From: Psammoneis japonica
Lineage: Eukaryota
Reading direction: 5' to 3'
NCBI GenBank assembly: GCA_008632985.1
Contig: QPGO01000171.1
Location: 62,001 to 126,000, forward strand
Length of the DNA: 64,000 nucleotides
Shown here one piece after another: positions 3,608 through 45,246 of this stretch; positions within the stretch are counted from its first letter, which is position 1, and every line of letters begins with the position of its first letter. The translations under genes and the position numbers were made by a program. Under the pieces are notes generated by a model, which was not told the origin of the DNA, made no database searches, and saw only the letters and a program-made list of their open reading frames with translations.

Positions 3608-3852
3608 TGACAGAAAATGAAGATGACTGGGTGGAAGAAAACAATGACTCCTTACTGCTGTCTAAATAGCAGATGAGTCTCCGTGCAGAGACCGTTACAG
3701 GAGCCGAAAGACTGGTGTCGTGACATCGGTGCTACTGTCATTATTCTTGTGAGCCGAGTGGCTCGAAAGCAAACTACATCGCGCGATGCGCGCAGAACTA
3801 AGAGCACACATAATTATGTGTGATAAACTAAAATCTTGTTCAAATCCTGTCA
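3608..3852 (-). repeat. 3' LTR of element B
   Basis: 245 bp, direct repeat of 9968-10212, preceded on the minus strand by the PPT-like AAACTGGGGAG. Confidence 0.95.
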
Positions 3853-8983: not shown

Positions 8984-9625
8984 GTTGCAACTAGGTGGAT
9001 GTCGGAACTGGCTAGAATCGGAGTGTGGGCTTGAAATAACTTGAAACTTGACTTGAATCTTGACTTGATGTCTTGAACTGTCTTAAGAGTCAGAAACCGC
9101 GGGCTATGACATCCTGTTCGTAGTTAAGTGCCAAGCTTCCTATCCGGTCCATAGAGTTGTGCCGGCACGTCCAAACCCGCAGCTGTTGACGCTTTGGGTT
9201 GCTTGAGAGTGGAGCAACGGGTTAAAAACCCCTGCTGACAAGCTAACTAGAGGTGGACAAGACCTCTGAACCGTTCTTATTTTATGTTGGTTGGATGACC
9301 CGATCAGGCCGGCCAAATTTGGCGCTGTGGAGGGACGAACAAACGTGGGAAATGCACCCTCACCCCAATGCAGGCTGCAATCATGAACTGCTTCCTCTCA
9401 CAGTTGTCCTCGTGGACCTTGCAGGACTGTAGAAGACCAGCAATCCGGTGTAGATACAAGGCGGTAGACTTGGCGTGTGTGGAGCAGAGCCAGAGTCAGG
9501 GGTTTATGTTGTGTGCACGTGGACGCGAGAGGATGGATTGGTGGGATCCGCTACAAGGAATCCGGAATCTTGGATGTCTGAGAATTCGGGAATTCCTGGC
9601 CAAACAAACATCCGTTGAATAAATG

Positions 9626-9966
9626 TGTCCAACGATGGGAGGCATTGGATAAATCAAAACGTGTAGATTTTAATCCAGCATCCAGCAGTGAAGGAGGTAG
9701 ATGCACCCTTCCACCACCAATGGTGCGTGTCATCAAAAATTTCTCGATGACGATGATGAACACTCAACGGACAATAAAGAGCAAGACTGTTAATTTTGTT
9801 CAACGATGGGAGGCACTGGATAAATCCAAACGTGTAGATTTAATCCAGTGTCCAGCAGTGAAGGAGGTAGATATGTGCTTCCACCACCCAACGATGCGCG
9901 TCGTCGAAAAATTTCTCGATGATGATGATGAACGCTCAATGGACAATAAAGAGCAAGACTGTCAAT
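9626..9966 (-). repeat. Diverged tandem duplication (about 171 bp x2) in the leader of element B, including the PBS
   Basis: 9626-9794 and 9797-9966 align. Each ends in AAAGAGCAAGACTGT(T/C)AAT on the plus strand. Confidence 0.85.
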
Positions 9967-9967
9967 C

Positions 9968-10212
9968 TGACAGAAAATGAAGATGACTGGGTGGAAGAAA
10001 ACAACAACTCCTTGGTGCTGTCTAAACAGCAGATGAGTCTCCATGCAGAGACCGTTGCAGGAGCCGAAAGACTGGTGTCGTGATGTCGGTGCTGCTGTTG
10101 TTGTTCTTGTGAGCCGTGTGGCTCAAAAGCAAACTACATCGCGCGATGCGTGCGGAACTAAGAGCACTAACAATCATGTGTGACAAACTAAAATCTTGTT
10201 CAAATCCTGTCA
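9968..10212 (-). repeat. 5' LTR of element B
   Basis: 245-bp copy of 3608-3852, followed on the minus strand by GATTGACAGTCTTGCTC (PBS position, 9951-9967). Confidence 0.95.
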
Positions 10213-10342
10213 CTCCCCAGTTTGCTTGAGGGGTCAACAGCGATAGATTCAAAGTCGGATTGGTTGAAAGCCTTGGGATCGAAGTTACTAAGAGCACACA
10301 CAATTGTGTGTGACAAACTAAAATCTTGTTCAAATCCTGTCA
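10213..10342 (-). repeat. Extra PPT/pol-end fragment (10213-10286) plus 56-bp LTR start (10287-10342)
   Basis: 10213-10286 repeats 3853-3926. 10287-10342 repeats the first 56 nt of the LTR and abuts the TSD. Confidence 0.9.
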
Positions 10343-12534: not shown

Positions 12535-14099
12535 ATGGTGTCGGAAGAAGGCGATGCGTTTGAATGCAAAACACCTGATGCTTTTTCCCATGAGGATGTG
12601 TTACTGGGTATAGGAGAGAATTCGGGATCAACACGGTATGGTTCTGGGCAAGAATTAGCGAGGGGTAGTATCCTTCATTTGTACGACGCGTCTTATCTGC
12701 GGGACCGTACTTCTGTAGAGTCGACTGGAAACAGGTCTTGGTGCCAGCAGCTCCGTTCTCTGCTTGGTAACGTAAACGTTTGTGTCTGGTTATTGACACT
12801 GACTTTGAGCTATTCATTGGAACGGGGATCGTTTAAACTCCTTGTCGACCGGACAGGACCGTTTCGTTTGTTTTCTGCATCCTTCATCTCTGCAGCGCAC
12901 GCCATCTTGCTTTTTGCTGCTTTCGCAGCCAAAGCCATTCGTTCTCGCACGGTCGACTTCAAGGCGTGTCTGCCGTTGGGCGATGTTGCTCGTAAGTTGC
13001 TTGCACCGTGGCATAGTTATTCGTTGCGCGAGTTACTCTAACTTACGAAGTTTGTTCGTCCGTACATGTTGCAGTTATATCAGTTCTTGATACAATGCAT
13101 TTACTCTTGTGTGTGGTGACCGGCTCTTATGTTGCCGCGCCGCTCACAGTGATTCTTGTTCAGTTCACTGTTGCTGTAACCGCCGTCTTTTCAAAATTTT
13201 CTCGCTCAGCCTCTTCTTTTCGCGGAAACAATTCTGTGCATGACGTATCTACATCTGCAGATACTGAAAGTCACGACAACAGAGTGTTGTCGAACCGCCG
13301 TGGACTCTTCTTCTGGCCGGAATGCACGAAGCTGTTCCATTTAGATATGTGGGGCGCCATCCTTATTTTTGCCTCCGTTACAGTTGGGTTGCTACCATCC
13401 TTTTTGTCAATCCATGGATGGAACGCTTTTTTCAAAGACGATGAGTTGGCCTTGCGATACTCTTACAATACCATCATCTTCACGCTGAGCTGTGTCCCTG
13501 CGGCTGCATCACAACTTTACAAGGCACATGCGCTGCTTCAATACCAGCAGCCAATAGAGTCAGACTCAATGGATTTGGTTCTTGCCATTTTTAAGTTCTG
13601 CTTCACAATGGTTATGTCTCCGCTTCTTTACCGTTTCCAAGGACTGGGTGCTGGATCGAACTGGATTTATCTATACCCAACGAAAGAATTCCGAAGAAAT
13701 TATGTGGACGCTCTCTCGTGTTTCTTCGCAACGCGCAATGATGAGGAGGCGGAATCTCTCTATCCAGAGCCTGCTCATTGCCGTTGGTCTTTGTCAATAT
13801 GCCTACTGCATGTTTTGTCTATGTTTGTGATAGGACATGCAGTGAACAGAATTGTTCATGCAAACGCTACGAAAGACATGTATAAATGCGTGACCGTTGG
13901 TGTTGTTCTCGCAGTATCGGTGATGTGCGTGTACGAGTACTCAGAATCCCTCTACAACCATGTCGGAGGCATAGAGACTTTGTATTTTTCCTCCGCATTT
14001 CTCGTTGTTGCCGGTCTCGAACTTTTTCACCGTTTTCGTCAGTGTGACCCTACGTATGAAACAGTTTACCCTGATCAAGGAAACTTGTACGAAGAATGA
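12535..14099 (+). CDS. Multi-pass membrane transporter, CRT-like/DMT superfamily; exons 12535-12991 and 13075-14099 (true 5' end may lie further upstream)
   Basis: An 83-nt GTAAGT...GCAG intron (12992-13074) joins two ORFs in frame (DVALISVLDTMHLLL). Many hydrophobic helices; motifs APLTVILVQ and SCVPAAASQLYK resemble CRT-like transporters. Normal TpA and CpG content. Confidence 0.7.
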
Positions 14100-14300
14100 G
14101 TTGCGGAAGTGACTGAGAAGCTATGCCGGTCTCCTGCACACATACTGTTCTTACCTATTGGAGGAAAACTAGGACTCAAACCTTGGAAGAGCAAACCATT
14201 CTAGCATTACTATTTTAATATGGGCTTCTATTATGCTCGTCAGATCACAGGCTCAGCTACTCCCTCTTTGGATAAGCATAAAACGGCGTAAAGTTCCGCT

Positions 14301-16339
14301 CTAACCGTCTGTCTTTTCCATTCTTACGGTCCGCAGCTCTTCGCGACGCAACGACCCTAAGACATCAGCGCAGTATCGAACAATAGTGTGGTGGACACTG
14401 CTGAATCCATCGTTCTCTTCCATATCACGAATGACACTCTCAAAGGCATTGTTATTCAAACTCCTACCCACTGCTTCATCTTCCAATTCTTGTTCAATGA
14501 TGTGCAATACCTCCAACGCCGTCCGCGCCCATTGCAAGAAGTGGTGGAGCACTTCTTTTTCGCCTTTCACCTGTATTTTCGCATGTCTCTTGTTACTGAA
14601 CCGTGGGTAAGACCTGTCATCGTGCAGGTCAACTAAGTCCTGCGAAAGCGTCGTTGGGTAAAGGGCCAGAGAACGGCTTACAACATCTGTCAAAAGCGTC
14701 ATTGCAGCTTTTTCATTATGCAAGCTGATTGGATGCCGGATGTCCCTGCATGTCTTATACAACGAAGACGAGGAAGGAGTCGCGATTGTTCTATTATCTG
14801 GTACACTCAGATATGCGCGGTTCGGGTTCACACAGTCACATGCAACAGCGCCACCCGCAGCAGTTCGTAGCTCCTCCTCGTTCAAGGAGATGGCGCGTAG
14901 GAAGCTGAAAAGAAGACGAGTATTCTCATTGTTGGACACGCATACTCGAACACGCTTGACCGGTGGAACGGGCATCACTAGGTGCCTGCTAGAACAACCA
15001 GTTGTCCTTGATAAGCTGTTACAATGCTCCAAAGCCGACGCAGAGACTACTATACCAGGTGTGGCACTAGGTTTGTGTGAAGCTATCTTCCCCCCAGCGA
15101 AGGAACAACCGGAGGCAGCACCGCCATCCCCTCGAGTCCAGAATTCCATCTTCTTCTCATGCAAAGGATCATCGTGAGCGATTCCCAGCTCAAGAGGTAC
15201 CTCATTCGGACAGAAACCATCTAGCTCCCTATTATCTTCGACTGCAAACCCGTAATTGAGCAAGAAGCGATGATTGCATTTCTGCCCATAGGAATCGTAA
15301 ACCTCAGCCCCGGGAGGGATTGCTTGGAGACTGAGGACAAAAAGAGAAATACAAAACAAAATAAGTCATGATAAGATCAATGAATTTAGGTCAAATGGCA
15401 TCGTTTCAAATCTCCACGCGGCAAAGGAACACGTACGTCGTGATGGTAAACGCTTGGCGGTCATCATCAAAAGTCCACTTCGTTTCACGCGGTCGGTAGT
15501 GATTCAACATATCTGCATGAGGCACCAAGGCTGAAGTCCGGTGCCCGTCAATTTGCAAGCCAAAATTACGACTGCAGACACACATGCGGGCCCACTTGAA
15601 CTCCTCAAGCGTGCATATGCTTTCTAGTTCAGGTGCTATCTGACAAATCGTCTTGTAGTCATCCGCGATGGCCACGTTCCGGTCGTTGATCTGCACAAGC
15701 AAATGAGATCCCTGAAGAAAGGAGAGTTCCTCTGGCGACCAAAATATGGGCATATTCTTAAGCGTCCGCGGCAAAATGTCGTAGTATGGATAGAAGAACG
15801 ACGATGTCCCGTTAACTTTGCGATCCCACAATAGATATATCATGAGGAAGATATGTTTAGGAGCATCAAGATCCAAATCAGAACTCAGGATAGCTTGACC
15901 AATCGGTGTCGCCTGCCCCATTTCAACCGTAATCAGGCATTTACGCGGAATTACCATGCACACGGAATTGGGGGGGATGTGAACTCGTGCGTGAACGCCT
16001 CGCATCTCGCTTTCCTCCCGCAGGTCACAAACTTCCTTCGGCTCTTTCTTCTCTTCCTCATCCATTTCAGAAAGTGAGCGCTTCACTGGGTCATATTCCC
16101 TTAGCTCCAACTGTTATGGACGCAAATTTCAATGTTCGAAATGATAACGTGAAGAGGACGTGTAAGCCGAGTCACAGCGGCAGGGACATGATTTGGGTTC
16201 AGCACTGGTGCTTGAAACTCACCGAGTCGAACTGAGCACCATTCTCTTTTAGCCAGGCTTCGAACCTATCGAACTTATCTCGGAGGGGCATGGAATGACT
16301 GGCGGGGTGAGTGCCCGACTTAACATGCATCGTCATCAT
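14301..16339 (-). CDS. SET-domain methyltransferase (SETD3/Rubisco-LSMT-like); exons 16339-16223, 16110-15437, 15330-14301
   Basis: Motifs FEAWLKENG, RGVHA, CSRNF, ALVPHADMLNHY, EVYDSYG..NHRFLLNYGF. Two GT-AG introns (16222-16111 and 15436-15331) keep the frame. The start could alternatively be the ATG at 16291. Confidence 0.88.
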
Positions 16340-16509: not shown

Positions 16510-16913
16510 CACCAGCGCAAATTCTGTGCGTCAGTGCGTCCCCTTTGCAGCAGGTGGGTCAGGAACAATTCTACATGATGATGAATGATGATGGAGATCT
16601 CCCAATCCGAAATTCCAGTGATGACAAAGAGAAACACATTGTCTGACAACAACCCAGGTGTGCTGTGTGTTTTTGTTGGTGAGAGATTGGCTTGACAACA
16701 ACCACAACCCAAAACATGAGGCAGCAGAGAAAAGAACAGCAGCAGAGGGCAGTGCAACACAGCTCCTTTTTTTGATGACAGAATGAAAGGTGAGGTGAAC
16801 AATCAGCATCTGTGGGGTTTGGCTTCTTTCATCCAGACTTGTTGCAATTGCTTTGACAGTGAGTGCAGCACAGCTGTGCTTTGTGCCCAACTTGCCGTGC
16901 TCTTGTGCATTTG
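16510..16913. repeat. Unclassified degenerate repeat, left part (target of element C)
   Basis: Abrupt switch to almost TpA-free, CpG-poor, TG/CA-rich sequence; continues at 24007 across the ATTTG TSD. Confidence 0.55.
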
Positions 16914-17189
16914 TGACAGGATTTGAACAGGATTTGGATGCGCGCGAAGCATCGCGCGCTGTTTAGTTTACCGCGCACAGTTTTGTGTGCTTTAGTTCCG
17001 CGCGTTCACGCGCGATGTAGTTTGCTTTCGAGCCACAAGGCTCACAAGAATAACAACAGTAGCCCGATTATACCGACTTACACGTCTTTCGGCTCCTGTG
17101 ACGGTCTCTGAGCGGAGACTCATCTGCTATTTAGACAGCAGTAAGGAGTTATTGTTTGAATTCTTGCCATTTGCCTTCATTTTCTGTCA
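16914..17189 (+). repeat. 5' LTR of element C
   Basis: TGACAGGATT...TTTTCTGTCA, direct repeat of 23731-24006. Confidence 0.97.
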
Positions 17190-17206
17190 GATTAACAGTC
17201 TTGCTC
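17190..17206 (+). promoter_or_regulatory. Putative primer-binding site complementary to a tRNA anticodon arm (Asn-GUU-like)
   Basis: GATTAACAGTCTTGCTC directly follows the LTR and is conserved in element B. Its reverse complement contains GA-CTGTTAA-TC, an anticodon stem-loop with GTT. Confidence 0.55.
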
Positions 17207-18112
17207 ATTGTCAACCCATTGAGCAACCGCCATCGTCGTCGTTGATTTACCAACGACGCTATTTCAATTCTACGTGGACCTCCGTATATATTCTACATAC
17301 ATCGGCAAGTCTACGCGCATCCAATACCAGGGCATCGGCAGGAAGTTAACGTCACCGTCAAGTCTCCTTACCGCTGGATATCTGGTTTGATTATACTACC
17401 TTTGATCGCTGAAGACATACATTCAACGGTCATATCCAAGTCTATCCTTGATCCTCATCCCTTGATATACCTGTTCATCGGTTAACGGTCAAGAACCCCA
17501 CATATTCAAGGATCTTCGTCGCTGAAGACATATATATATATACATATCTTCACGGCCAAGAACCTGTACCCACTCTTCGGACTACGGTTTTGCTGCCACT
17601 CTACAAGCACACCGAGTCCATTGTACCTGATCTACCCCGGACTGCTGGTGCTCTACAGTTCTACTAGGTCCACGAGGACGACTGTGAGAGCAAGCAGCCG
17701 TGATTACAGCCTACGTTGGGGCGAGGGTGCTTTCCCGCGTTTGTTCGTTCGTCCACAGTGCCTAACGCCTACGTCAACTGGCCAGCCTGATCGGGAAATC
17801 CAACCGATATAAAATAAGAACGGTTCGGGGGTCTTGTCCACCTCTGGCCAGCTTACCTGCAGGGGTTTACAACCCGCTACTCCGCTCGTAAGCAACCCAA
17901 AGTGCCACTGGCTGCGGGTTCGGACGTGCCGGCACAACTCTGCGGACCGGATAGGAAGTTTAGCACTTAACAACGAACGGGGTAACAAAGCCCGGCAACT
18001 TCTGATTTTAAGATAGTTCAAGATTTCAAGTCAAGTCCATTCTCACCCAAGTTTCGAGTCTACCTTCGCTTCCCAACCAGAATTGATTGTCCTGACACCA
18101 CTTTTGTCTACC

Positions 18113-21100
18113 ATGGTTCTCACTCGTCAGCAACAAACCGATGGTTTCGAGCACGTTGTTGGAACCGTGCTTGCCCAAGGTGCTGGGAGTCCTCTTCGTT
18201 TGGCTTTGGCCCAAGACGGCACGGACTCGCATCAGGAACTATTCACGTTCATGCCGTCCCAAATCGACTCGCTTGAGCACGACAACGGCACTGATGTGAT
18301 CCCTTTGCCCCGTGGTTATAAGAACATGTTAGCAGCACTGGTTAGCCTGTACATTGTCAAAGCACACAAAGGTCTTGACGTTGCCAACGACTCCTCTTTG
18401 TTCACGCATGACGAGTTCCTTGCCTGCCGCCTCAGCCCGGACTGCATGTCCTCTCTGTCCATCGGCAGCTCACCCCTTGCACCTCCACATGTCACCAACC
18501 CGACCAAGGCACGCGACCCGGTGCGAGACTTCAAGCGAGGCATCAAGCGTGATCCCACCGCTTTCACGGCTCTCAAATCCGACAAGCAGTGGCACACTTG
18601 GCACACCTCACTTGTGGCACAAGCCCGTGCCCAAGACGTCGAGTGCATTCTAGACTCGTCGTACAAACCGACCAGCCCCGAAGACAAACTGCTCTTTGCT
18701 GAACAGCAAAAGCACATGTTCGCCGTCTTCGAACGCATCCTTCTCACCGACAAGGGCAAGGCTCTCATTCGCGAAAATGTGGGGTCCTCTGACGCACAGA
18801 CCGTCTGCCGCTCCTTGTCTGAACACGCGCTTGCCTCCACCCGTGCATCCATTGAGTCCTCCACCCTGCTCACGTACCTCACCACCGCACGTCTTGGTGA
18901 TGGCACTTGGAAAGGTCCGACCCACAGGTTCATCCTTCATTGGCAAGATCAGTTGCGCAAGTGCGAGGCACTCATCCCCGCCAGCGACCACTTCTCTGAA
19001 GGACAGAAGCGCGTCATGCTCGAGAATGCCGTGCACCCTGTCGAGGAACTCCGTGCTGTCAAGAACCAAGCTGATCAGCATCGTACGCAGAGTGGCAAGA
19101 GCCTCACATACGATCAACACTGTGGCTTGCTCCTCTCCGCGGCAGCTCAGTGCGACAGCACGTTTCAACCCAAGACGACACCTCGAGCTCCCCGACGCGC
19201 CACATGCGCACACGACGTCCACTCCGAGGAACCGTCCGACGATGTGTTCTACGACATTGACAGCGACGTTGACGTCCTTCAAGCCAATGCTGCCTGCACC
19301 CGTGGTCCCAGCCTCACCGGTGTCCAATGGAGACGTCTCCCTCCCGACCACCAACGGCTCTGGGATTCGTTGCCCGATTCCTCCAAGGCGATCATCCTTG
19401 AGCACTCTCGTCCGCCTCCCCGCAACCCGCGAGCCAGCAACTACCATGAGTCTGTTACGGCCAACCTTCACGACCAACACCTTGGGAGTGACGGTGATGT
19501 CAACTTGTCCAACACGACTCCTGCTGACTGTGGTGACTCCGCTGCACATGTGGACGCCATTTCGGATGATCCTATCCTGGCGCACCTCACCAAGCGCAAG
19601 CCACTGCCACCCGGTGATCTGCAACGTCTGTTGTCTCCTAACCAAGCCCCCAATGCCAGTCGACCGGGGCCATCCGCCGCTTCCTCTACCCCGCCAGCTT
19701 CTGCAGATGACACAGAACTTAACGGCCGCACTTGCCGCCGCGTTAACAACCACAATGTCATTCACTCTGCCTCTGCTCATCGCTCCACACGCACTGGCGC
19801 TCTAGTCGATCGTGGGGCCAACGGCGGCATTGCTGGCGATGACGTCCGCGTCATCGCACGCACCTCTCGCCAAGTCGACGTTCAGGGCATTGACGATCAT
19901 CAATTGGTGGACATCCCCATTGTCACCGCTGGTGCCGTCATTGAGACCCAGCGTGGTCCCATCATCGCCATCCTCCATCAGTGCGCATGCACGGGAAAGG
20001 GCAAGACCATCCATTCCTGCGGCCAGCTCGAATGGTACAAACAGGATGTCAACGATCGCTCTGTCAAGGTGCCCAACGGCTTGCAACGCATTGCCACTCC
20101 TGATGGCTATGTCATCCCCATTGACATCAAGGCTGGCCTGCCTTATGTTGCCATGCGACCTTACACTGACGCCGAATGGGACACCCTGCCCCACGTCATC
20201 CTCACCGGTGATGACACATGGGACCCTTCCGTCCTCGATCACTCTGTCACTGACGATGACCAGTGGTACGACGCGATCTCTGACCTGCAGGACGATCCCA
20301 CTGCCAACCTATTTGACGAGTACGGCAACTACCGTCACCGTGTCGTTGTCAACGAGACCATCTTGTCCGCTTCCTTGTCTGCCGATCACGCGTCCGCCCT
20401 CGATGATCACCTCATTCCGAACGACGACGTGTTCTACGAGTGTCATCTGCATGCGATTGACCCCAAGGGCGATGACGTTCCACCTCCGGAGCGCACTGTA
20501 CAGCCCAAGGACCCCCCCTTCGAGTCTCTTCGGCCTTGCTTTGGCTTCCTGCCTGCCGATACGGTCCGTCGTACTTTTGACTGCACCACGCAGTACGCCC
20601 GCATGCCCGCCGGCACACACCTTCGCAAGGCCTACAAATCACCCAACCCCGCCCTTAATGTGCACCGCCGCAACGAGCCCATCGCCACTGACACCGTTTA
20701 TGCCGACACCCCGGCCGTCGACTCTGGTTGCACCAGCGCCCAACTGTTTGTTGGCACCGAGTCTACCGTCACTGACGTCTACGGCACTAAGACGGACAAA
20801 GAGTTTGTCAACACACTCGAGGATCAGATCCGTGAACGTGGTGCCCCATCCAAACTCATTAGCGACCGTGCTCAAGTTGAGATCAGCAACAAAGTGCTCG
20901 GGATCCTACGCGCCCTCTTCATCTCCAGCTGGCAAAGTGAGCCTCACCAGCAACACCAAAACTTTGCCGAGCGTCGACACCAGACTGTGAAGCGCATGGC
21001 GAACACTGTCATGGACCGTTTTGGTTCGCCCGCCCACACATGGCTGCTGGCGCTCATGTACGTGTGCTTCATGCTCAACCATACAGCGTCCCCACGTCTC

Positions 21101-23783
21101 CACTGGCGCACGCCCCTCGAGACTCTCACTGGATCCACCCCGGACATCAGCCCATTGCTTCGCTTTCACTGGTGGGAACCAGTGCACTTCCACCTCGATG
21201 ACTCCGATTGGCCGTCCGAATCTCGTGAGTTGCGTGGACGCTTCGTTGGCATTGCTGAGCACGTCGGCCACCAGATGACCTTCAAGATTCTATCTGACGA
21301 GACTCAGAAGATCCTCTACCGGTCCAACGTTCGCTCCGCCACCCCCGATCCTGCCGTTCGAAACCTGCGTCTTGATCCTCCTGATGGGGAGCCACCTGAA
21401 CCCATCATCAAATCTCGCCATGACGACAACCCCGTCGATTCTCCTGATGGGGAGATCAGGACACCCAAGATGCCAGTTTTCGATCCGCAAGACATCATTG
21501 GACGTACCTTCCTCATGCAGCCACAAGAGGACGGACAACGCCACAGAGCTCGCATCGTCAAGGCCATCGAAGACCACGAATGGAAAGTGAACGGCAATCC
21601 CGAGCTCACTAAGTTCGTCTGCTCTGTCAACAATGACGAATACGAGGAAGTCCTTGCCTACAATGACATCATGAATCACATTGAGCAAGAAGACGAAGAC
21701 ACCACTATTTGGAAATTTCGACGCATCGTGTCACACGAAGGCCCTCTGAAGCCTCACGACCCAACCTGGAAAGGCTCAAGCTACAACATCATGCTTGAAT
21801 GGGAAAGTGGGGAGATCACGTCCGAGCCTCTTGCCATCATCGCCAAGGACGACCCCGTCACCTGTGCCATCTATGCACGAGAGAACGGACTCCTCGACAC
21901 GGATGGATGGAAGCAGTTCCGCACCATCGCGAGGCGCCAAAAGAAGCTATTTCGCATGGCCAACCAAGCCAAGCTTCGCTCCTTCCGCACTGCACCTCGC
22001 TACAAGTACGGATACGAAGTTCCCCGGAACTACAAACACGCCATGTCACTAGACGAACGCAACGGCAACCGCAAGTGGGGAGACGCAACTAATCTCGAGA
22101 TGGACCAACTCGACGAATACGAAGTCTTCCATGACTGCGGGCCCTTCAAGTCTTCCACTCCTCCTGCGGGACACAAGAAGATCCGAGTGCACCTGGTGTA
22201 CGACGTGAAACACGACGGTCGCCACAAGGCACGACTCGTAGCCGACGGGCACCTCACGGACGTACCTGTCGACAGTGTCTACTCCGGAGTAGTCTCCCTT
22301 CGTGGCCTTCGGCTGATGATTTTCCTGGCCGAACTCAACGAGCTGGAGACATGGGCCACCGACATTGGCAATGCCTGCCTTGAAGCCACCACCAAGGAGA
22401 AGCTTTACATTGTAGCTGGACCCGAATTTGGCAAACTCGAAGGACACATCCTTGTCATCCACAAGGCACTGTATGGACTCCGCAGCTCCGGTCTCCGCTG
22501 GCACGAGCGCTTCGCCGACTGCCTGCGAGCTGAAGGCTTCTTCCCCTGCCGCGCCGAACCCGACATTTGGATGCGCAGGAACGGCGACCACTATGAATAC
22601 ATTGCCGTTTATGTGGATGACCTCGCCATTGCCATGAAGGACCCTCAATCTTTTTGTCGACACTCTCACGGAAAAGTGCAAGTTCAAGCTCAAGGGTACG
22701 GGACCCATTGAGTTCCATCTGGGTTGCGACTTTTCCCGGGACCCTGACGGAACCTTGTGCCTGTCTCCGCGCAAGTACATCGAGCGCATGGTCGACAGCT
22801 GCGCCCGACTGTTTGGGGAGAAACCTGCCACCAACGCCCTGTCACCTCTAGAGAAGGGTGACCACCCCGAACTGGACACTTCCGAACTGCTGGGACCCGA
22901 TGGCATTCACAAGTTCCAGTCTCTTGTTGGTTCACTCCAATGGGCAGTGTCCCTTGGTCGAATTGACATTGCCACGGCCATCATGTCACTCTCTAGCTTC
23001 CGAGCTGCGCCCCGTCAAGGCCACTTGGATCGTGCCAAACGCGTCTGTGGGCACCTCTCCAAGATGCGACACGGTGCTCTCCGCGTTCGCACGGAAGAGC
23101 CCGACTATTCGGATCTCCCTGCTCCGGCCTACGAATGGATGCATTCCGTGTATGGTGAAGCAGAAGAGATGATCCCGAAGGACGCTCCACCGCCCCTTGG
23201 CAAGTTCGTCACTACCACCCACTACGTCGATGCAAACTTGCACCATTGCATGCTCACCGGACGCTCTGTCATGGGAATGCTCCACTTCCTCAACAAATTC
23301 CCGGCTGATTGGTTCTCCAAGAAACAAGCCACCATGGAGACTGCAACCTACGGATCTGAATTTGTTGCCGCAAGGAATTGTGTTGAGCAGATTATCGACC
23401 TGCGCATCACCCTGCGCCACCTTGGCGTCCCGATCCGTAATGTCAGTTACATGTTCGGTGACAACAAGTCGGTTGTAGACAGTGCCACCATCCCGCACTC
23501 CAAGTTACACAAGCGACACACCGCACTATCGTTCCACCGTGTGCGTGAGGCAGTTGCCTCTGGTTACCTTGAGTTCCACTTCATCGAAGGCTCCCGCAAC
23601 CCTGCTGACATTCTCAGCAAGCATTGGGGTTGCTCCCAAATCTGGGACCTTCTCCGACCCCTCATGTTCTGGAACTTCATTCCATCCGAAGTCGAATCTG
23701 TTTCTGTGGCTCCTCAAGCAAACTGGGGAGTGACAGGATTTGAACAGGATTTGGATGCGCGCGAAGCATCGCGCGCTGTTTAG
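18113..23783 (+). CDS. gag-pol polyprotein of element C (gag, protease, integrase, RT, RNase H) with one +1 frameshift at 22651-22655
   Basis: ORFs 18083..22711 and 22755..23783. Motifs LVDRGANGG, SEPHQQHQNFAER, KARLVADG, KALYGLRSSG, YVDD, NPADILSKHW. Removing one T from the T5 run restores PQSFVDTLTEKCKFKLKG as in element B. Confidence 0.93.
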
Positions 23784-24006
23784 TTTACCGCGCACAGTTT
23801 TGTGTGCTTTAGTTCCGCGCGTTCACGCGCGATGTAGTTTGCTTTCGAGCCACAAGGCTCACAAGAATAATAACAGCAGCCCGATTGTGCCGACTTACAC
23901 GTCTTTCGGCTCCTGCAACGGTCTCTGAGCGGAGACTCATCTGCTATTTAGACAGCAGTGAGGAGCCATTGTTTGAATTCTTGCCATTTGCCTTCATTTT
24001 CTGTCA
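23731..24006 (+). repeat. 3' LTR of element C
   Basis: Follows the PPT AACTGGGGAG; direct repeat of 16914-17189. Confidence 0.97.
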
Positions 24007-26069
24007 ATTTGCACAAAAAGCACAGAGAGAGAACAAAGCTTTCTCATCTTTTAACATGAACCACCATGTGTTCTGAAAACATCTCACAGAGCTGCAAGAG
24101 AATGGGGGTTACTTGTAAAGAAGAGTGGGGTCAAAAGGGAAAGCAGAAAGCTGACAAAGCTTGTTTGGGCAGCAGTTGACACAGCACCTTGCTGTGCAGA
24201 AGCACCAAGAAGTTCAAAGAAACAAATCACAGAGTGCATTTGCACTGTGTGGAGAGAAAAATCACCAAAAGAGCACACATTGTGCAAACAAAACAAGTGT
24301 GACAAGTGGAGACACAGACACACTTTTTCTCATTCTGACCCAAAGCTGCTGTTCTGGAAGCTCAACCGCACTTTTTTGGGCACACACAGCAAACAAGCTG
24401 TGTGAGAGCTGAGGGCATGAACGCCATTCTCCAGCATGTTTCTCTGGTCCATCATCATCATGCAACCAGAGATGGGGACATGGCTTGCCAACACACCACT
24501 CATTGCCAATGTTGTGCTCTCCAATCTTGTTTGTTCTGGACTCTCACACAGAATTGCACAGAACCAAGCTGTGCACTGTGCATTGTGGGAGGATGCAAAA
24601 ACACCCAAACACTCATTTTTCTGTGTTGTTGTTTTTTCAGGAGAGTTGCACAATGCCATTTCCAAATGATTGCTGTTGTGCAGCAGTGCATCTGTGTAAG
24701 TGCCACGTGGAACACTTCCAAAAGTGCATCATCTCTGCACACCCCATTTGAGAGCAGCGTGCACAGACCTTTCTTCCTGTTGTTGTCCCCTGGTCCTGTG
24801 GAAAGATCAACCTTGGTGGACAAAAAAAGGAAAAAGCATGCTCATGGAACAAGTGGCAGGTGCACTCTGGATGAGAATGCACACGACTGACGTGGTGGAC
24901 AAGAAGGTGTCCAAACTTTTGCTGTGTGTTTCTTGGACTGCTCAGCAGTGGCAGTGGTGTCAAATCCTCGTTGAAAATCAGCTGCAGTCATCCAGCGCAA
25001 ATTGTGAGACACACCATTTTGCTTTGTCATGATGCAAAGTTGCATGCCAGCCCTGCATCTTCCAATTTAAAATGTGCCATTTCATTTTGCCGTGATGCTG
25101 CATCATGGCCCACTGGATTTTTGGCAACTGCCAAGTCAAAAAGCCAGCAAAAATGCAAAGATCAGCAGATGCAAAATGAAAACAGCATTGTTGTGAGCAA
25201 GTGCAGGTGCAAGAGGTTGGTTTGACATCAACTGAAAGAAAGATGTGGAGAGAGCCACTGTGTGGGATGACCTGTTTCCAAAAGAAAGCAAAGGATGCTG
25301 TTCCAAGATTTTCTCACACACAAAGCAATCACTTGGATCCAAGGAACAATTTGACCCATGAGAAAGTGACCACAATGGCTCCACCCTGATGTCTTCAATT
25401 TAGAGCAAGTTGGGTTGGAGTGAAAATTGCATGGAGAATGAAGTTTGTTCACAAACTCTTTTTGCGAAAACAAGCAGCGAAACAACATTGACAAAATCAC
25501 ATTGATGCTGCTGTCCTCTGGAAAAACAAGATTGTTCAGCAAAGCAAACTTCTGCCTTCCTTTTGTCTGCTCCATGCCAATTGCAGAGATGTGAAATGTC
25601 AAATCTTAAAAAAGAAAAAAAGTGTGGCTTCTGCAGTGGTGAGTTTTCATGGAGATCGCATGGCACATTTTCAGCACAGAAAAGGCAAAACACAGTTGTC
25701 GCGAGGTCAATGATGAATGGTAAAATGGAACATTGCCACAAAATGGGTTTTGTGTTGATGTTGTCATCTGTCTTGAGATGAGGTCAACTCCCCTTCCCCT
25801 CACTCTGGTCAAGCCAGGAGGCTTGAATCCCCATGACATGCTGGATTCAAATTTTGTGGAAGTTGGGTTGGCTGAACTTTGACCCCCCACTCTTAGAAAT
25901 GCCCAACATGAGAGCATTGTTGGCCTTCCCACTCCATAATTCAATGTCTTGCGAGAATGTCACAGGCATGTGTTGTTCATGGTGTCAGGCATTTCAAATT
26001 GGAAACAACTTTTCCAGGAGCACCTTCATCGCACTGGAAAGTGCAAGGAACGAATTGTGGTGATAGAAC
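24007..26069. repeat. Unclassified degenerate repeat, right part
   Basis: TpA- and CpG-depleted, with Cys/His-rich junk ORFs in all frames. No domain recognised. Confidence 0.5.
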
Positions 26070-26434: not shown

Positions 26435-29400
26435 TCAATGCAGCTTCTTGTCAGCCAGTGACCGCCCTCGTTCTTCATCACCCAACCCTCCCTCCTGTCT
26501 GTGACAAGCTGATACCTGCGGAAAGCAATCTGTGTTCCGCATCTCATTTTCTTCAGAGAGAAGCAGGATATGGGCGTTGCTACTGAACACAACATCAGTT
26601 TCAACCGACTTCAAGGGTTGGGAAACCTCAGCTCCCTTCCCGGGAACGCCACTGTTACAATCGCTCAATGACTCATCATGCGAAGCCGACTCGGAAAATG
26701 CATCATCAAAATTCGCAAAATTGTTCCATTCGCTATTGTCCGTTTCCGCCTCTGCATGCTGCACTGTATCAACGCACGCATTTCCGGCAAACAAGTTCAT
26801 CACGGGGACATCACCATCCTCGCTTCTTTCATCGCAATATCGTACATCGACACAAGTGGCAGCTTCCTCGGAAGTGGCCGGCTCTCCAAAGCCATTCTGA
26901 GACGCTTCAACCTGCCCATCTCTAAAAGGAATCTGACTGCTCCCTAAAGGGTCGTCAAAAACGTATGATCGTGTGGAGCCACCGGACGTCCCATAACTGT
27001 CGTCAGCAGACGGGTCTCTTTCCATGGGAACTCGATCTTCGCCCTTTCTATCATCCGTTCTCCTCGACGGTAAGCTAAGCGCTTCCATCATGCTTGCAGC
27101 GACATCAAGATCGTTTTCGTCCATGTCAATAACTTCCCCTCCAACAAGCACTCCTCGGGTAGTCGATAGTTCCTTGGTATCGCTAACCGTGTACTCGCCA
27201 TTTCTTATCGTCGAGGGACGATGAGGGTGAAGCGGATCACTGTAACCACCTAGAGGCGCCGATTGGAAAGCCGTTTCCGAAGCGAGTGTCGTGTTGACAA
27301 ATTTTTGCCAATCTGAACATAAAGAGTGTGCCTGGATGAGTTTTGGAATGACTAAAGATCTCGGAGGAAGCGACACCACCGGTCCATGGTCATCATTATC
27401 TCCATCCGGCAGCGGAGAATCCACTGGTGATGCCAATGGGGCTTGTGGGGTACAATCGTTCCCAGATGCTTTTACGTTCACGTTCACCGGCTGCGTGGAG
27501 GAAACTTCCCCATACTTGCTGGAGTCATTCAGATCGCTCACATTGGCACCAGCATGTACAAGCGCTTGGCAGATAATAATTATGTGTCCCATGTAGCCTA
27601 CGCGACATGGTTCCGACAAACCGCTGACAACCTCGTCCTTCACATTCCTCTTACTACTCCCAGTTTGACGCAAGATATGCACATCATCGTCACACGTCAA
27701 AGGTATCGTGTCACAACAGTTCGACGTACTTTTGCAAACCTTCCATGCGGCCGCTTTTTGCTTCGTGTCTTCCTTCTTGATGATAGATTCGGAAGAGGCA
27801 CCACCGGCGCCAACCCCATTCTCAACTTTAACTACTGATACGACGCCAGATTCAGCATCATCCGTCTCAACATCCTGAAAACAGGCCATCAGCCGCGTCA
27901 ACAAATCACATTTAGCCAAAAAGTACGTCTGAAGCTCGGATCGCGAGTCTGCACCTTCGAAGACATGTACGAGTAAGTTTGCCACAGACTGGTGCAGCAT
28001 TGAGCACCATTCAAATTGCCAAAAGAGATCAAGACAGGTTTCTAGACAGTCACTTTGACACAGGCGGATGTCGATTTCACGATCCTTTAGAAGCACAAGA
28101 GCTTCCAGAAGACGGACGATGCGGAGACGAGATGTACCAAGTAACGGCTGGGGCGTCGACTGCGAATATTGCATGGATGAACACCACCTAAGAGCGCCGG
28201 GGTGATGAAGAAGGCCTGACAATGAATTCAGTAGCTGGGGAAGATGGAGCACTAGGGCTTTAACGCTCGCCGAAGATGCATCATCCCGAGTCTCGAAGGC
28301 TAGGCCGCCCTGTGTAGGCCGCCCTGTGGGTCTCTCGAGACTCACCATCTCCTTTCCGAGGGTGTTTCCGACGGAACCATAACCACCAAGCTGAAGTACC
28401 AAGCTCTCCAATACGTTCAACGCGCACGTGAGGCGGCTTTCGTGGTTTGTAAACTCGGTTCCATGGACGACCGCAGTTGCACTCGCCACGATACGCTGAA
28501 GGATGGGATCGGTCGTAAGCCGTGTCAAAGTTGCAGAAGCAACAGGTGAGTTCTGAATGACAGTTATGAGAACTTCGGAGGCATTCTGCGATTCATAGAG
28601 CCGCCTCTCTAACAATTCTTCCGTGTCTGAAGCGGACGCCTCGGACCAAACCAGGCAATCGAGAAGCAAGTCAATTGCTTCCGGGGATTTTGACCAGTTG
28701 CATCTAAGAAGCAATCCGTCATCTTTAGAAATACTCCCATCATTTTCTAGATAACGCCCTTCACTATCTCTGTCCTCTACTTGCTCGTTGCCTGTTTGCA
28801 TCGTGGTCTGCTGGGATGGCAAAAAAAACCTCTGTACAATCTGCATGATGGAATGTGAATAAAGGTGCGAAAAAAACGCCTTCATCAGCGTAAACCTTCC
28901 TTTCCCCCCCCCTTCTTCCATGTACGCGCTCATGGCTGCAGGTCGCATGCGGAAAAGCACACCAAGAATCTTTTCAAAGTATCCGGCTCGGTGGTCGTCC
29001 AGCGTACCCGAAGGGGTGCAATACAGAACGGAAAACATTTCATCGAGAATAGGCCTGGGAGGAATCCCCGAGCGACAGTCGACAAGTGTGTCGACTATCC
29101 CATCAATTTCACAACATATCACTTCACATGCCATGTAAGGGAACCGAATGCGATTGACGCTGTCCCCTCTCGGGGACGTGTTAGTTTCCAGCTGAAAATT
29201 GTTCGAAGTGATTTTTGATGTCGGGTCCAGTATCGTCTGTGGGTGGCAAGTAGCTGGCGGCGGCGAGCATAACACGTGCTTTATTAAATCCACCACAGTT
29301 TCTTCTCTCGAAAAAAAGGCAATTAATTCCGGATGCATCCCTCGCAGTTCTTGTAGGAGCTCATCTTCGCAGAGCAGTTGTTCCAAGGAAAAGCTGCCGC

Positions 29401-29494
29401 TGTCCAGGAGTTCCTTCAGCGGAGAGTCGAAGGAAAAGGCGCCTGTGGACCAAATATCTCCCGTGGGTACCGCTCCACGTTCTAACAGCGCCAT
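26435..29494 (-). CDS. SIT4 phosphatase-associated (SAPS) / PP6 regulatory subunit-like protein
   Basis: 1019-aa ORF with EDELLQELR, RFPYMACEVICCE, GYFEKIL, LGTSRLRIVRLL, LDLFWQFEWCSMLH, RVGYMGH and an acidic tail. A possible terminal intron at 26515-26427 would alter the C-terminus. Confidence 0.88.
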   Translation of the reverse strand: MALLERGAVPTGDIWSTGAFSFDSPLKELLDSGSFSLEQLLCEDELLQELRGMHPELIAFFSREETVVDLIKHVLCSPPPATCHPQTILDPTSKITSNNFQLETNTSPRGDSVNRIRFPYMACEVICCEIDGIVDTLVDCRSGIPPRPILDEMFSVLYCTPSGTLDDHRAGYFEKILGVLFRMRPAAMSAYMEEGGGKGRFTLMKAFFSHLYSHSIMQIVQRFFLPSQQTTMQTGNEQVEDRDSEGRYLENDGSISKDDGLLLRCNWSKSPEAIDLLLDCLVWSEASASDTEELLERRLYESQNASEVLITVIQNSPVASATLTRLTTDPILQRIVASATAVVHGTEFTNHESRLTCALNVLESLVLQLGGYGSVGNTLGKEMVSLERPTGRPTQGGLAFETRDDASSASVKALVLHLPQLLNSLSGLLHHPGALRWCSSMQYSQSTPQPLLGTSRLRIVRLLEALVLLKDREIDIRLCQSDCLETCLDLFWQFEWCSMLHQSVANLLVHVFEGADSRSELQTYFLAKCDLLTRLMACFQDVETDDAESGVVSVVKVENGVGAGGASSESIIKKEDTKQKAAAWKVCKSTSNCCDTIPLTCDDDVHILRQTGSSKRNVKDEVVSGLSEPCRVGYMGHIIIICQALVHAGANVSDLNDSSKYGEVSSTQPVNVNVKASGNDCTPQAPLASPVDSPLPDGDNDDHGPVVSLPPRSLVIPKLIQAHSLCSDWQKFVNTTLASETAFQSAPLGGYSDPLHPHRPSTIRNGEYTVSDTKELSTTRGVLVGGEVIDMDENDLDVAASMMEALSLPSRRTDDRKGEDRVPMERDPSADDSYGTSGGSTRSYVFDDPLGSSQIPFRDGQVEASQNGFGEPATSEEAATCVDVRYCDERSEDGDVPVMNLFAGNACVDTVQHAEAETDNSEWNNFANFDDAFSESASHDESLSDCNSGVPGKGAEVSQPLKSVETDVVFSSNAHILLLSEENEMRNTDCFPQVSACHRQEGGLGDEERGRSLADKKLH

Positions 29495-29829
29495 GTTAAG
29501 GAACTGGACACGACGACGGAAGTGTGCTATCGTTACCGGTACAGTACTATCGTGTCATTGCATTTACGTAGATTTCATAAAACAGGTCTCGTAGGATGAG
29601 GCAGGTCATCAAATAATAGTGTGGGTAAACGCACATAACGACAGCGCTGACGTGGAAGGTCACCCTTTAAGTAATTGCACCTTATGTGCGGTACATTTCA
29701 AGGTTATAACGCACATAAAGGCGAATTTGTCACTTGTTAAACAGGGCAATTTTAAGAGTCATCACACATTGCCCCTTTGTCATTTTAAAATCAAGTTAGT
29801 CAAACACAGCTTTAAACCGCCATTGTGAA

Positions 29830-31597
29830 GCGCGCACGGAATGACGATCTTGTGGCACAAATGTCACCAGTCTAACGCAAGTAACCAGGGCAGTGAACAC
29901 AGAAAATGTGAAGTGAAGGCATTCTGAGCACAAAGAATTGATGTTGTCAGCTGTTGCTTGCCCCACTGTCTCAGCTTGTCTCCTCGCCCACCCCAAGCAG
30001 CTTGTCTTCTTTTGCCCACTTCCTTCCTGCCACCATGCTGCACACATTGATCAAAGCATTTTGATTTTCAACTCTGCCATGCAAGAGACCAAGGTCTTGC
30101 AGATGGGAGCTGGCCAGCACTGCTGCTGCTCTTCTTGGTGCCTTGCAAGAGCAGCGGCCGTGGATGATGAGCGCTGTTGAGCCACCGCCTGGCACCAAAG
30201 CTGCAAGGCTGCACAAATTTGGCTTCTTGCTTCTCTGTGTGTGGCTTCTTGACCATGCTCCTCATGCCATCCTCACAAAAGCAAGCCTTTGTTTTCTCTC
30301 CCTGCTTCTGAAGCTGCCTGTCTTGTGCTCCGTGGCACGCACTGGAGATCATTTCTGGTCACCTCAGAGGATGCTGCTTGCCTGCTGTGAACTTCTGCTC
30401 TTTTCATCTTTTCTTTTTTTTTGTTGCTCTGGCTGCTTGCTGCTGCTCCAACACACAGAGCTGATTTCTGCTGCTGCTGCTGCTGCTTGCTGCTGCTCTT
30501 GTTCATGATCTTGGTGCCTCTCCGAAAAGCATTGTGCTGGGAGCTCTGTGCCAAAGCTGCAAATCATGCTTGCACTCTCTCAATGGCATCTTTGGCAAAC
30601 TTCAGTGCTTTCATGTGCTTGGAGATTCAGTGACAAGCACTGAAGCAGTTTTTTGTGAGGCAGCTCTCAACAACAACCTGGGCCACACCCCCCAAAGCAG
30701 GGCTGAAAACACTTTGCAGGGTGCTGCTTGGTCATGGACAACACACACTTGGCTGGCCTGTTGGGGTGGCAACAAGCTCTTGCTGAGTTGCACTGCAGAG
30801 CATCTCAACTTCTTGCTTTTGGCACCCAAAGCAGCCTCTCAATTTTCCCTTTTGGCACCTTGTTCATCCCTTCTGCTGCCTGTTTCTTCAAAAGACACAG
30901 GGGGCTCTCTCTGTGGGAGCTGGTGCACAGTGCCACCCTGGCTTCTTTTGCTCTGCCTCTTGCAGCCATCAGCACAGCAGCTGGACACACTGCTTCTGCA
31001 CAAACTTCTTTTATCTGCACACCACACTTTGCCCCACAAATTGTTCCTTGTCCTTGAGCACAGCTGGCCTTTGGTGATGGCCACGCTTGTGAAAAATCAT
31101 CAGCTTGCCCCACTTTCAAATCCAAGTTGCTTTTCTGCATCACTTGGCACCTTGCAGGTGACTGCATGCACATTGTTGAGCCGCCACCCTGGTCAAGGCT
31201 GTGCCAAGTTGACTTGCTTCTTTTTGTCTGTGTGCATGGCTTCTTGACTTCTCTCATGGTGTGTCATCCACTGTGCATTGAAACAGTTCTTTGTGAGGCA
31301 GATCTCAGCTTCACCAAAGCAGTCTCACAATTTCCCCCTTCTGGCATTTTCTTTGCCTCTTCCACCAGGTTCTTCAAGGCAAAGCACACACCACCACTCT
31401 CCTCTCTGTGTGTGGCTCTTGCCCCCCTCTGGCTTCTTCTTCTTGCTCTGTGCCTCTTGCAGCCACTGGTGAAGTGGCCACACACTCTGTTTCTGCACAA
31501 GCCCTTGTCTGCATGTTGCACTTTGTCTCACATGTTGTTCCTTGTCCTTGTGTGCAGCTGCCTTGCCTTTGGTGATGGGTGTTTTTGTGCAGAGTGT
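29830..31597. repeat. Unclassified degenerate repeat with internal diverged duplication
   Basis: Almost TpA-free; about 30937-31090 resembles about 31427-31590. Similar composition resumes after 38350. Confidence 0.45.
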
Positions 31598-44628: not shown

Positions 44629-45246
44629 ATGGTGAACAAAAATCAAAACGCAGTCGATTTGACCAAGATCAAGATGATGCGGGTTGAATTCAGCCCACAT
44701 AATTGCTCACCCGATGCCCATGTTTTCCTGAATGCCCTTTGTTCGGACAAGATTCCTGCTTCTGAAGATCTTTTGGATGGATTTACCCCTCAAGGCCTCA
44801 AGAGTGACGCTGTCACTGTCCTCCGACATGAGATCGTTCATGATCTTATCATCCCTGAAGCCATCTTGACTAAAGATCTTACACGAATCGGACCAATCAT
44901 TGAGAAGGCTCCTCTCTTTGTGGCCACCCCTCAAGGCCCCCCAGTTTGTCTGAACCTCAGCACTCTTCAGAAGACCATGATCAAGGTGATCTCAGAGAAC
45001 GACGACACCATGCATGCACATGTTGGGACTCTACGTTTCCACTTCAGCCCTCGTTTTCGGCATTGTGATTGCTGGGATGACATCTCCGATGATCCGCATC
45101 CAGACCCACCGGCTGCTTCAAGTTCTGCATCCCCACCGGTTGCTGCCACAGGTCCTGCTCCTGAAGACTTTGCCAAGGCCTTGGCTGCTCATTTGCCTGG
45201 TCCAAAACAGTTTGAGCAAGCCCGACACTGCTGGCCCGCAAGTTAA
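44629..45246 (+). pseudogene. Possible truncated gag of another LTR element
   Basis: 205-aa ORF about 200 nt downstream of CA-AGGTTATGAGC (44424-44436), which resembles a half-tRNA-Met PBS. No diagnostic domain. Confidence 0.3.

Follow-up and report, generated by a model that had tools for sequence, protein, structure and literature searches.

The stretch of DNA analyzed here (the window) comprises 64,000 nucleotides of Psammoneis japonica (assembly GCA_008632985.1, contig QPGO01000171.1, forward-strand positions 62,001 to 126,000), and all coordinates below are those of the window. Our main subject is element C, a Ty1/copia long terminal repeat (LTR) retrotransposon at 16914-24006 on the plus strand, recognized by direct reading of the sequence, in which TpA dinucleotides have been lost to TpG and CpA. 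The element is bounded by the target-site duplication ATTTG, read directly on both sides (16909..16913 on the left and 24007..24011 on the right, plus strand). Its LTRs have TG...CA ends and lie, both on the plus strand, at 16914..17189 (5' LTR, with 13 TpA and 21 CpG) and 23731..24006 (3' LTR, with 9 TpA and 21 CpG). The leader at 17190..18016 (plus strand) is followed by an open frame of 1564 amino acids at 18017..22711 (plus strand), which extends from gag to the N-terminal part of the RVT_2 reverse transcriptase. The remainder of the polyprotein, that is the C-terminal part of the reverse transcriptase and the RNase H, is read in a different frame at 22638..23372 (plus strand); the two frames are separated by a 1-base shift near 22651, a place at which other copies of the element have one base fewer. 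A purine tract, GGGGAG, stands just before the 3' LTR.

The TG...CA repeats, the 5-bp duplication, the polypurine tract, the gag-IN-RT order and the RVT_2 domain are those of Ty1/copia elements, and full-length copia polyproteins align to 98% of the frame. Among Pfam models, none for integrase or gag matched element C itself above threshold. Its nearest full-length relatives are polyproteins from metagenome contigs, with 44-58% identity. The family was surveyed in the Logan contigs of run X1, one sample that contains the window, at a likeness to the element of at least 80%. A total of 14,210 contigs match element C, and their depths add up to tens of thousands (which is not equal to copy number) compared to ~30 for the flanks; the family is clearly very abundant. 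Among the variants that reach at least 5% of the depth in 16700-24200, 414 are transitions and 46 are transversions, and relative to element C the changes from A to G and from T to C (285) outnumber the reverse (129).

Depletion of TpA is expressed below as rho(TA), strand-symmetrised and, for the local values, computed in 1-kb bins; these values may differ slightly from the rho of the preprint on Bigelowiella natans to which we compare our results (Mettrop et al., bioRxiv 10.64898/2026.01.13.699255). The leader is still undepleted, with a rho(TA) of 1.01 in the bin 17001-18000. Its TpA content is thus normal, unlike that of the coding part, and many of the contig variants located there set TA against TG or CA.

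Differences between the two terminal repeats of element C

The two LTRs, 276 bp each, differ at exactly nine positions, and the differences consist of nine transitions and no transversions. Given as 5'/3', they are 17054 C/T, 17060 T/C, 17070 A/G, 17072 A/G, 17099 T/C, 17100 G/A, 17143 A/G, 17149 T/C and 17150 T/C. Eight of the nine oppose TA to TG or CA, counting the adjacent pair 17099/17100 where one LTR reads TG and the other CA; the exception is 17149. Exchanges between TA and TG/CA are possible for only 64 of the 276 transitions available in the 5' LTR, or 60 of 276 in the 3' LTR (~23%), and the binomial probability of at least eight such differences out of nine is 6e-5 or 4e-5, respectively. 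All 21 CpGs are intact in each LTR. Direct comparison of the sequences thereby confirms what the initial annotation had read from them: nine differences, all transitions, between 276-bp LTRs with an intact target-site duplication, eight of them fitting TpA versus TpG or CpA, and CpGs left unchanged.

Expressed as losses since insertion, 8 of ~30 TpAs (~27%) have disappeared from the LTR pair, compared to 0 of 42 CpGs, and the losses are split over both LTRs (2 and 6). Changes from A to G and from T to C are in balance (4 versus 4-5). At the reciprocal TG/CA site the paralogous LTR at ~3608 has TA (CCTGTAACGG), as had also been noticed initially. That LTR belongs to element A, an older element described below. 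As an outgroup for all nine sites the LTRs of element A were tried and rejected, the same two alleles segregating there at several of the sites. One of the nine, 17054, is found among the 40 of the 460 run X1 variants that were listed.

Direction of change at conserved codons

The direction of change was determined by aligning the protein of element C with 45 distant copia polyproteins and considering the columns with at least 80% agreement. At conserved tyrosine columns element C has kept the tyrosine in 26 of 43 and shows cysteine in six and histidine in six (12 lost, 28%). In element A the corresponding figures are 18 of 40 kept, with ten cysteines and seven histidines (17 lost, 42%). The reverse is not observed. 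Of the conserved histidines, element C has kept all 28 and element A 25 of 27, neither of the two others having become tyrosine, and conserved cysteines are kept in four of four columns in each element. Neither element has a stop codon at a conserved glutamine or tryptophan column. Taken together, TAY codons have become CAY or TGY in 29 of 83 cases, whereas histidine or cysteine has become tyrosine in 0 of 63 (Fisher p = 6e-9). Accordingly, the 1564-codon frame of element C has lost tyrosine to histidine or cysteine at conserved columns and contains no stop codons at all.

Single-base changes polarised by the sister element point in the same direction. Among 45 such changes, TpA is the site of 15 of the 16 A:T-to-G:C transitions and CpG that of 14 of the 15 G:C-to-A:T transitions, and not one of the 45 converts CpA or TpG to TpA. 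The initial annotation had taken TpA as the ancestral state. That conclusion stands, by virtue of the conserved tyrosine codons; the argument then offered for it, from a single outgroup, was weak, and the two LTRs alone are unpolarised.

Polarising by whichever state prevails in the family in run X1 seemed at first to favor C-to-T changes, the classical direction; this reading was rejected. Among the 40 of 460 variants listed, 37 are transitions, of which 24 set TA against TG/CA, nine set CG against TG/CA and four are of other kinds. The majority turned out to be the derived state at tyrosine columns that are conserved in 36-45 of the 45 homologues. Six tyrosine columns read CAC or TGC in 47-95% of the family depth, and at 18278/9, 18875, 19110, 19118/9 and 19205/6 the homologues have tyrosine in 26-45 of 45 and the family majority has the derived state. 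Most copies have thus lost TpA at conserved tyrosine sites, and the family majority is therefore not the ancestor. A family consensus with ancestral TG/CA had been named at the outset as an outcome that would speak against loss of TpA; the majority does read TG/CA at many sites, yet at the conserved tyrosine columns it is derived.

As controls we used 80 related elements from metagenome contigs, of which 59 loci with at least 300 conserved columns entered the tyrosine test (21 were dropped). Some of these loci may themselves be sources of the proteins that define conservation, which would bias the test slightly in favor of the controls. Their rho(TA) ranges from 0.40 to 1.02, and 18 pairs of terminal repeats display 246 transitions and 137 transversions; the transitions are 49 of the TA class, 16 double, 67 of the CpG class and 114 other. 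Conserved tyrosine columns read histidine or cysteine in 46 of 1975 cases, and the highest fraction at any single locus is 0.118. With the identical pipeline, the corresponding counts are 10 of 40 for element C (p = 5e-8) and 15 of 37 for element A (p = 2e-14). Controls with strong decay of CpG, such as L034, have lost arginine and kept tyrosine, and the method therefore detects classical decay where it is present. The TpA-loss signature was not seen in the 80 metagenomic relatives by rho(TA), nor by the tyrosine test in the 59.

Erased DNA across the window and its borders

Over the whole window rho(TA) is 0.26. From 24.1 to 64 kb the values are 0.17 for rho(TA), 0.33 for rho(CG) and 1.66 for rho(TG/CA), and 40 of the 64 bins combine a rho(TA) of at most 0.43 with a rho(TG/CA) of at least 1.52, the cut-offs of the B. 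natans preprint. Element C is located inside one erased block, the left part of which lies at 16600..16913 (0 TpA and 1 CpG in 16600-16799) and the right part at 24012..26000 (rho(TA) 0.06-0.07, rho(CG) 0.15). It is a young insertion into this old, scarred block from which TpA and CpG have been erased. At 16700-16940 and 23981-24200 the erased flanks are matched by run X1 contigs of single-copy depth (29.6 and 32.6), with 0 differences.

A complex, non-repetitive block of 34 kb at 29900..64000 has lost TpA and CpG almost entirely, with a rho for TpG/CpA of ~1.4-1.9 and with nearly equal numbers of TG (3652) and CA (3601) on the plus strand. One of its bins, 30001-31000, contains no TpA at a G+C content of 52%. 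In the old blocks rho(CG) is 0.05-0.5. Simple repeats were considered as the source of the TG/CA excess and rejected, as only seven short tandem arrays occur in 40 kb. Within 29900-64000 the triplets TAA and TAG number 110 and 82, compared to 830 for TGA, and many long open frames result. A Pfam search of 66 frames of at least 130 amino acids in depleted DNA, 57 of them in 29900-64000, yielded one weak match, to Exo_endo_phos; automatic gene finders are likely to predict false genes in this block. The match lies at 51129-51677 (plus strand) and scores 23.5 bits against a cut-off of 24.5; it may represent the endonuclease of a decayed non-LTR retrotransposon. The old blocks have no remaining protein similarity, and a tblastn search of 24-64 kb with six polyproteins, the matches of three of which were listed, gave no copia relics outside elements A and C and a piece at 80-394.

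The borders between host genes and erased DNA are sharp within 200 bp, and the depletion of CpG has the same borders. Thus 16400-16599 contains 19 TpA and 16600-16799 none; similarly, 29400-29799 has 13-15 TpA per 200 bp and 30000-30999 none. A host gene with a SAPS-domain frame of 1039 amino acids lies at 26435..29554 (minus strand; rho(TA) 0.54, rho(CG) 1.00). All named relatives of its product are from diatoms (Nitzschia, Cylindrotheca, Pseudo-nitzschia, Fistulifera, Seminavis, Fragilaria and Bacillariaceae bins), with 37-46% identity, which makes a diatom the most likely host. A dinoflagellate host was considered and rejected: a spliced-leader motif has a single match with two mismatches, equalled in 34 of 100 shuffled sequences, and the SAPS protein speaks for diatoms. 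To the left of element C, the interval 13017..15365 holds a CRT-like gene (plus strand) and a SET/LSMT-like gene (minus strand), in bins with a rho(TA) of 0.64-0.71 and a rho(CG) of ~1. Overall, host-gene bins display a rho(TA) of 0.4-0.7 and a rho(CG) of ~1. Between element A and these genes, at 10268-12000, rho(TA) is 0.31-0.34 and rho(CG) 0.67-0.81; this stretch may be at a stage in between, or may be sequence of another kind.

The TpAs that survive in 29900-64000 are mostly found in TTAN and NTAA (151 and 110); ATAN and NTAT account for 25 and 48, with ATAC seen once and ATAT and GTAT three times each. These counts tentatively hint that TAT is the best target context.

Two other copia-like elements lie in the left part of the window. 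Element A (3608..10267, minus strand) is an older, broken copia element of a related subfamily with ~75% identity to element C. Its LTR pair is 92% identical and differs by 21 transitions and four transversions, and 10 of its 52 conserved arginine columns now read histidine, compared to one lost of 56 in element C. Element B (1206..3731, minus strand) is represented by a gag/pre-integrase frame with a zinc knuckle. Judged against 12 homologues, three of its four conserved tyrosine columns read cysteine or histidine, and tyrosine makes up 0.7% of its residues as compared to 2.0-3.9% in four homologues. Element B also includes a short integrase-like piece upstream of this frame, at 80-394 (minus strand), and the element is heavily depleted of TpA (rho(TA) 0.12-0.28).

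The erased DNA also contains duplications of different ages. An old pair at 53255..53557 (plus strand) and 55903-56206, spaced by 2648 bp and 80-82% identical, differs by 54 transitions and four transversions, and at 19 dinucleotide sites one copy has TG where the other has CA. Nineteen is half of the ~38 TA and CG sites expected in 303 bp, and the pair fits independent saturation of each copy after duplication. A tandem duplication at 49766-50269, with a unit of 252 bp, is 99% identical (two transversions, no transitions) and apparently arose once TpA and CpG had already been lost. Shorter tandem duplications are found at 61258-61457 (two units of 99 bp, 96%) and 56787-56873 (two units of 44 bp, 100%).

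Explanations for the loss of TpA and their implications

The analysis establishes a signature at TpA that has a clear direction, is symmetric between the strands, grows with element age, stops sharply at genes and is absent from the related elements of other organisms. We consider it probable that a TpA-specific process changes A:T into G:C, both in integrated transposable elements and in the silent DNA outside genes that surrounds them; such a process would be enzymatic and would play a role in genome defence.

Several lines of evidence describe how the process behaves. First, losses of tyrosine to cysteine and to histidine are about equally frequent (16 versus 13), as are TG and CA, and the process therefore acts on both strands. 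Secondly, it acts in place, after integration, since the LTRs of a single insertion differ, single-copy flanks are erased and the members of an old duplicate pair have diverged. Thirdly, the loss grows with age, from a rho(TA) of 1.0 in the leader through tyrosine losses of 28% in element C and 42% in element A to near totality in relics, and it progresses in parallel with the loss of CpG. It is the faster of the two in element C, where 0 of 42 LTR CpGs and 1 of 56 arginine columns have been lost (Fisher p = 1e-4). Finally, a given site can read TpG in one copy and CpA in another, and no conserved tyrosine column reads arginine, i.e. no CpG is produced. Consequently TG and CA behave as end states.

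The LTR differences could alternatively have been imported by gene conversion or ectopic recombination with other copies of the family. Donors would be plentiful given the number of run X1 contigs on the element, the LTR pair of element A carries the same two alleles at four of the nine sites, and all nine differences fall inside 97 of the 276 bp. However, this 97-bp span largely tracks the positions of TpA, and kept and lost TpAs are interleaved. Moreover, gene conversion only moves variants that TpA loss has already made, and it leaves both the erased single-copy flanks and the 19 TG-versus-CA sites of the pair at 53.3/55.9 kb unexplained. We regard it as an improbable source of the differences.

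About equally improbable, in our judgement, is a genome-wide mutation bias at TpA from which genes are spared by selection only. Such a bias would agree with the depletion of every long non-genic stretch of the window, and with a rho(TA) of only 0.5-0.7 in host frames. It is difficult to reconcile with the non-coding flanks of genes, which retain 13-19 TpA per 200 bp directly beside bins that have none. Furthermore, TpA at codon positions 2-3 and 3-1 reaches 0.6-0.8 of expectation in host genes compared to 0.28-0.29 in the frame of element C, and the leader of this young element still has a rho(TA) of 1.0. Depletion of CpG with shared borders fits a chromatin domain.

ADAR enzymes act on RNA, and their edits are heritable only via reverse transcription and only for the sense strand. 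If RNA or cDNA of the element were edited before integration, by ADAR-like conversion of A to I or by deamination of cDNA, copies would be born mutated. This would be in line with the many lost TpAs that family copies have in common, and with a frame in element C that is more depleted than the LTR divergence predicts. ADAR hyper-editing of double-stranded RNA derived from repeats further resembles the present case in changing A to G, in a preference for a 5' U or T and in having repeats as targets, according to the Discussion of the B. natans preprint. Editing of RNA, however, yields A-to-G changes of the sense strand only, whereas T-to-C is equally common here (13 versus 16 tyrosine codons; 4-5 versus 4 differences in the LTRs). 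Single-copy DNA that does not resemble transposons and the old duplicate pair are erased too, and a loss that occurs in place and increases with age contradicts editing before integration, which is very unlikely to be the cause.

The classical direction, in which deamination of C to T (at CpA as in repeat-induced point mutation, RIP, or linked to 5-methylcytosine) has made the TpAs from an ancestral TG/CA, starts with a high prior. It concerns the very dinucleotide class used by RIP, and the run X1 majority reads TG/CA at many TA sites of element C and C at 17054. Nevertheless, it has next to nothing left in its favor: no histidine or cysteine among 63 has become tyrosine and no glutamine or tryptophan a stop, yet 29 of 83 tyrosines have become histidine or cysteine; the homologues have tyrosine where the family majority is derived; old DNA, rather than being enriched in TpA, has almost none left (rho 0.0-0.2); and a frame of 1564 codons without a stop contradicts a C-to-T origin. 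The initial annotation had held that neither RIP nor decay of 5-methylcytosine gives the observed pattern, and with tyrosine never regained and TpA nearly erased from non-genic DNA we arrive at the same view. An artefact of sequencing or assembly, with 5-methylcytosine read as T or modified A as G, would suit the palindromic, methylation-like dinucleotides and data whose platforms (of both assembly and run) are not identified, but is scarcely conceivable given that single-copy run X1 contigs match the erased flanks with 0 differences, that copies differ at one site (TAC, CAC, TGC) in graded proportions, and that the old blocks have lost their protein similarity as well.

A TpA-specific process in silent DNA thus remains our preferred explanation. 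However, it should be interpreted with some caution, as several observations weigh against it. Element C has TpA at positions where 82-100% of the family depth is TpG or CpA (e.g. 17771, 17969, 18110 and 19443), and most of the family depth (83%) has C at 17054. At 19443 the TGC is also present in element A and the homologues do not have tyrosine, so that a true G-to-A change may have occurred there. The amino-acid test sees only non-synonymous changes at conserved columns, essentially in tyrosine codons, and synonymous and non-coding changes are unpolarised by it. The family survey is drawn from the contigs of a single sample, among whose listed variants only one of the nine LTR sites, 17054, appears. 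At synonymous positions element C is poorer in TpA than a post-insertion loss of 27% explains; part of its depletion predates the present insertion, either because its ancestors were already damaged or because the lineage avoids TpA. Lastly, within the 64 kb covered, targeting is confounded with selection, given that genes would keep their TpA anyway; the gene flanks and the synonymous sites argue for targeting without proving it.

Mechanistically, the target would be the self-complementary dinucleotide TpA. A hit on its A would give TpG and a hit on the A of the opposite strand CpA, after which the site would no longer be a target, leaving TG and CA as end states and producing no CpG. On chromosomal DNA the rate per site would be some hundredfold above that of other changes, and also above that of CpG decay. 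Combined with the ordinary loss of methylated CpG, the process would turn old elements into TG/CA-rich DNA nearly devoid of both TpA and CpG. Because no stop codon can arise in this way, long frames stay open even in dead copies. The enzyme would most likely be an adenine deaminase that acts on DNA and prefers a T on the 5' side, converting A to inosine, which is read as G. Such a deaminase might be directed to silenced or foreign chromatin, in a genome defence analogous to RIP.

The initial annotation had proposed RIP-like targeting of integrated repeats on both strands. Action on both strands and on integrated DNA is borne out. Repetition may or may not be the trigger: the family is very abundant and both LTRs are hit, but the erased DNA that flanks element C is single-copy in run X1. 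What marks the target may thus be the silenced or foreign state of the chromatin and not repetition itself.

Comparison with RIP in fungi reveals a near mirror image. The two share a restriction to transitions, the CpA/TpG versus TpA class, action on both strands of integrated repeats, an apparent sparing of genes and the formation of blocks of odd composition. Whereas RIP converts CpA to TpA, TpA is destroyed here; and whereas RIP creates stop codons and AT-rich DNA, here TAA and TAG are removed, frames stay open and G+C remains ~50%. RIP is also a process of ascomycete fungi, with cytosine methyltransferases of the RID/DIM-2 type, a premeiotic stage and duplication of sequence as the trigger. 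The host here is not a fungus, as the SAPS protein has only diatoms as named relatives. Decay of methylated CpG resembles the present process in its TpG and CpA products and its self-complementary target. It is present in the window as a separate, slower and co-occurring process, in the old blocks and in element A. However, it cannot remove TpA, and in element C it has barely begun while 27-28% of TpA is gone. ADAR editing, in turn, is set apart by the alteration here of both strands and of DNA outside transposons.

A mutagenic modification of thymine at TpA is an alternative that sequence data cannot separate from deamination of adenine. One candidate, 5-hydroxymethyluracil, is not known from diatoms. 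In principle, it could give rise to T-to-C changes on either strand, and it offers a parallel in being a thymine modification tied to transposon silencing with a reported preference for TpA. Specifically, older work on dinoflagellates, as cited in PMC11071213, reported that it favors TA and TC contexts, a preference which was not recovered in Breviolum (PMC11071213), and a role in transposon silencing is described in PMC11572971.

The closest precedent is the chlorarachniophyte B. natans. According to the preprint (Mettrop et al., bioRxiv 10.64898/2026.01.13.699255), two integrated viral regions received 231 of the 302 new mutations; these were nearly all A-to-G or T-to-C, and all at TpA, with TpG or CpA as the product according to the strand hit. 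The rate was ~1000x background, in foreign DNA only, and only some lines were affected; the authors propose deamination of adenine, with an ADAT2-like candidate (10.64898/2026.01.13.699255). The two cases have in common the A-to-G and T-to-C transitions at TpA and the 1-kb windows of low rho(TpA) and high rho(CpA+TpG). They differ in that the process was measured directly in mutation-accumulation lines of B. natans and is deduced from sequence here, and in that the former host is a rhizarian and the latter a diatom. The targets in B. natans are giant-virus and virophage inserts that are still TpA-rich (rho 0.45; 3.3% TpA), unlike the LTR retrotransposons and the tens of kilobases near zero TpA in our window, where CpG has been lost too. 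We thus conclude that this is the same kind of process as in B. natans, and that the lineage, the retrotransposon targets and the near-saturated stage with loss of CpG are new.

The system had been put forward initially as possibly undescribed. This holds only in part: the same hypermutation has been measured in B. natans, and we found no report of it in diatoms or retrotransposons in a literature search that mostly did not extend to subscription journals. A term search did not find the word "diatom" in the B. natans preprint, and a similar term search of a 2025 preprint on diatom transposable elements and of the 2009 CoDi paper gave no mention of TpA, hypermutation or dinucleotides.

On a broader scale, we consider the chances about even that diatoms, and perhaps several lineages of the stramenopiles, alveolates and Rhizaria (SAR), possess a chromatin-directed editing defence at TpA. 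Acting on adenine by deamination, or on thymine by a mutagenic modification, in newly silenced transposons and viral inserts, it would kill these within ~1% of background divergence without making stop codons and, together with CpG methylation, leave a permanent scar of TG and CA only across large parts of the non-genic DNA; transposons may respond by purging TpA from their coding sequence. If the pattern is genome-wide, this would be a second eukaryotic lineage with a mutational defence that runs against RIP as well as the usual G:C-to-A:T bias, and one far more advanced than in the only species with direct measurements. The hunt for the enzyme could then turn to another group of algae, one that is ecologically dominant, and a natural DNA adenine editor with 5'-T preference would be of interest for base editing. 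The odd composition of the genome and its scarcity of TpA would also be explained. Dating of insertions by LTR divergence would be biased, as TpA sites would evolve ~100 times fast, and gene finders would be misled by erased DNA that has almost no TAA or TAG and long empty frames. Finally, the conversion of tyrosine to histidine and cysteine would hide the old transposons of these genomes from protein searches.

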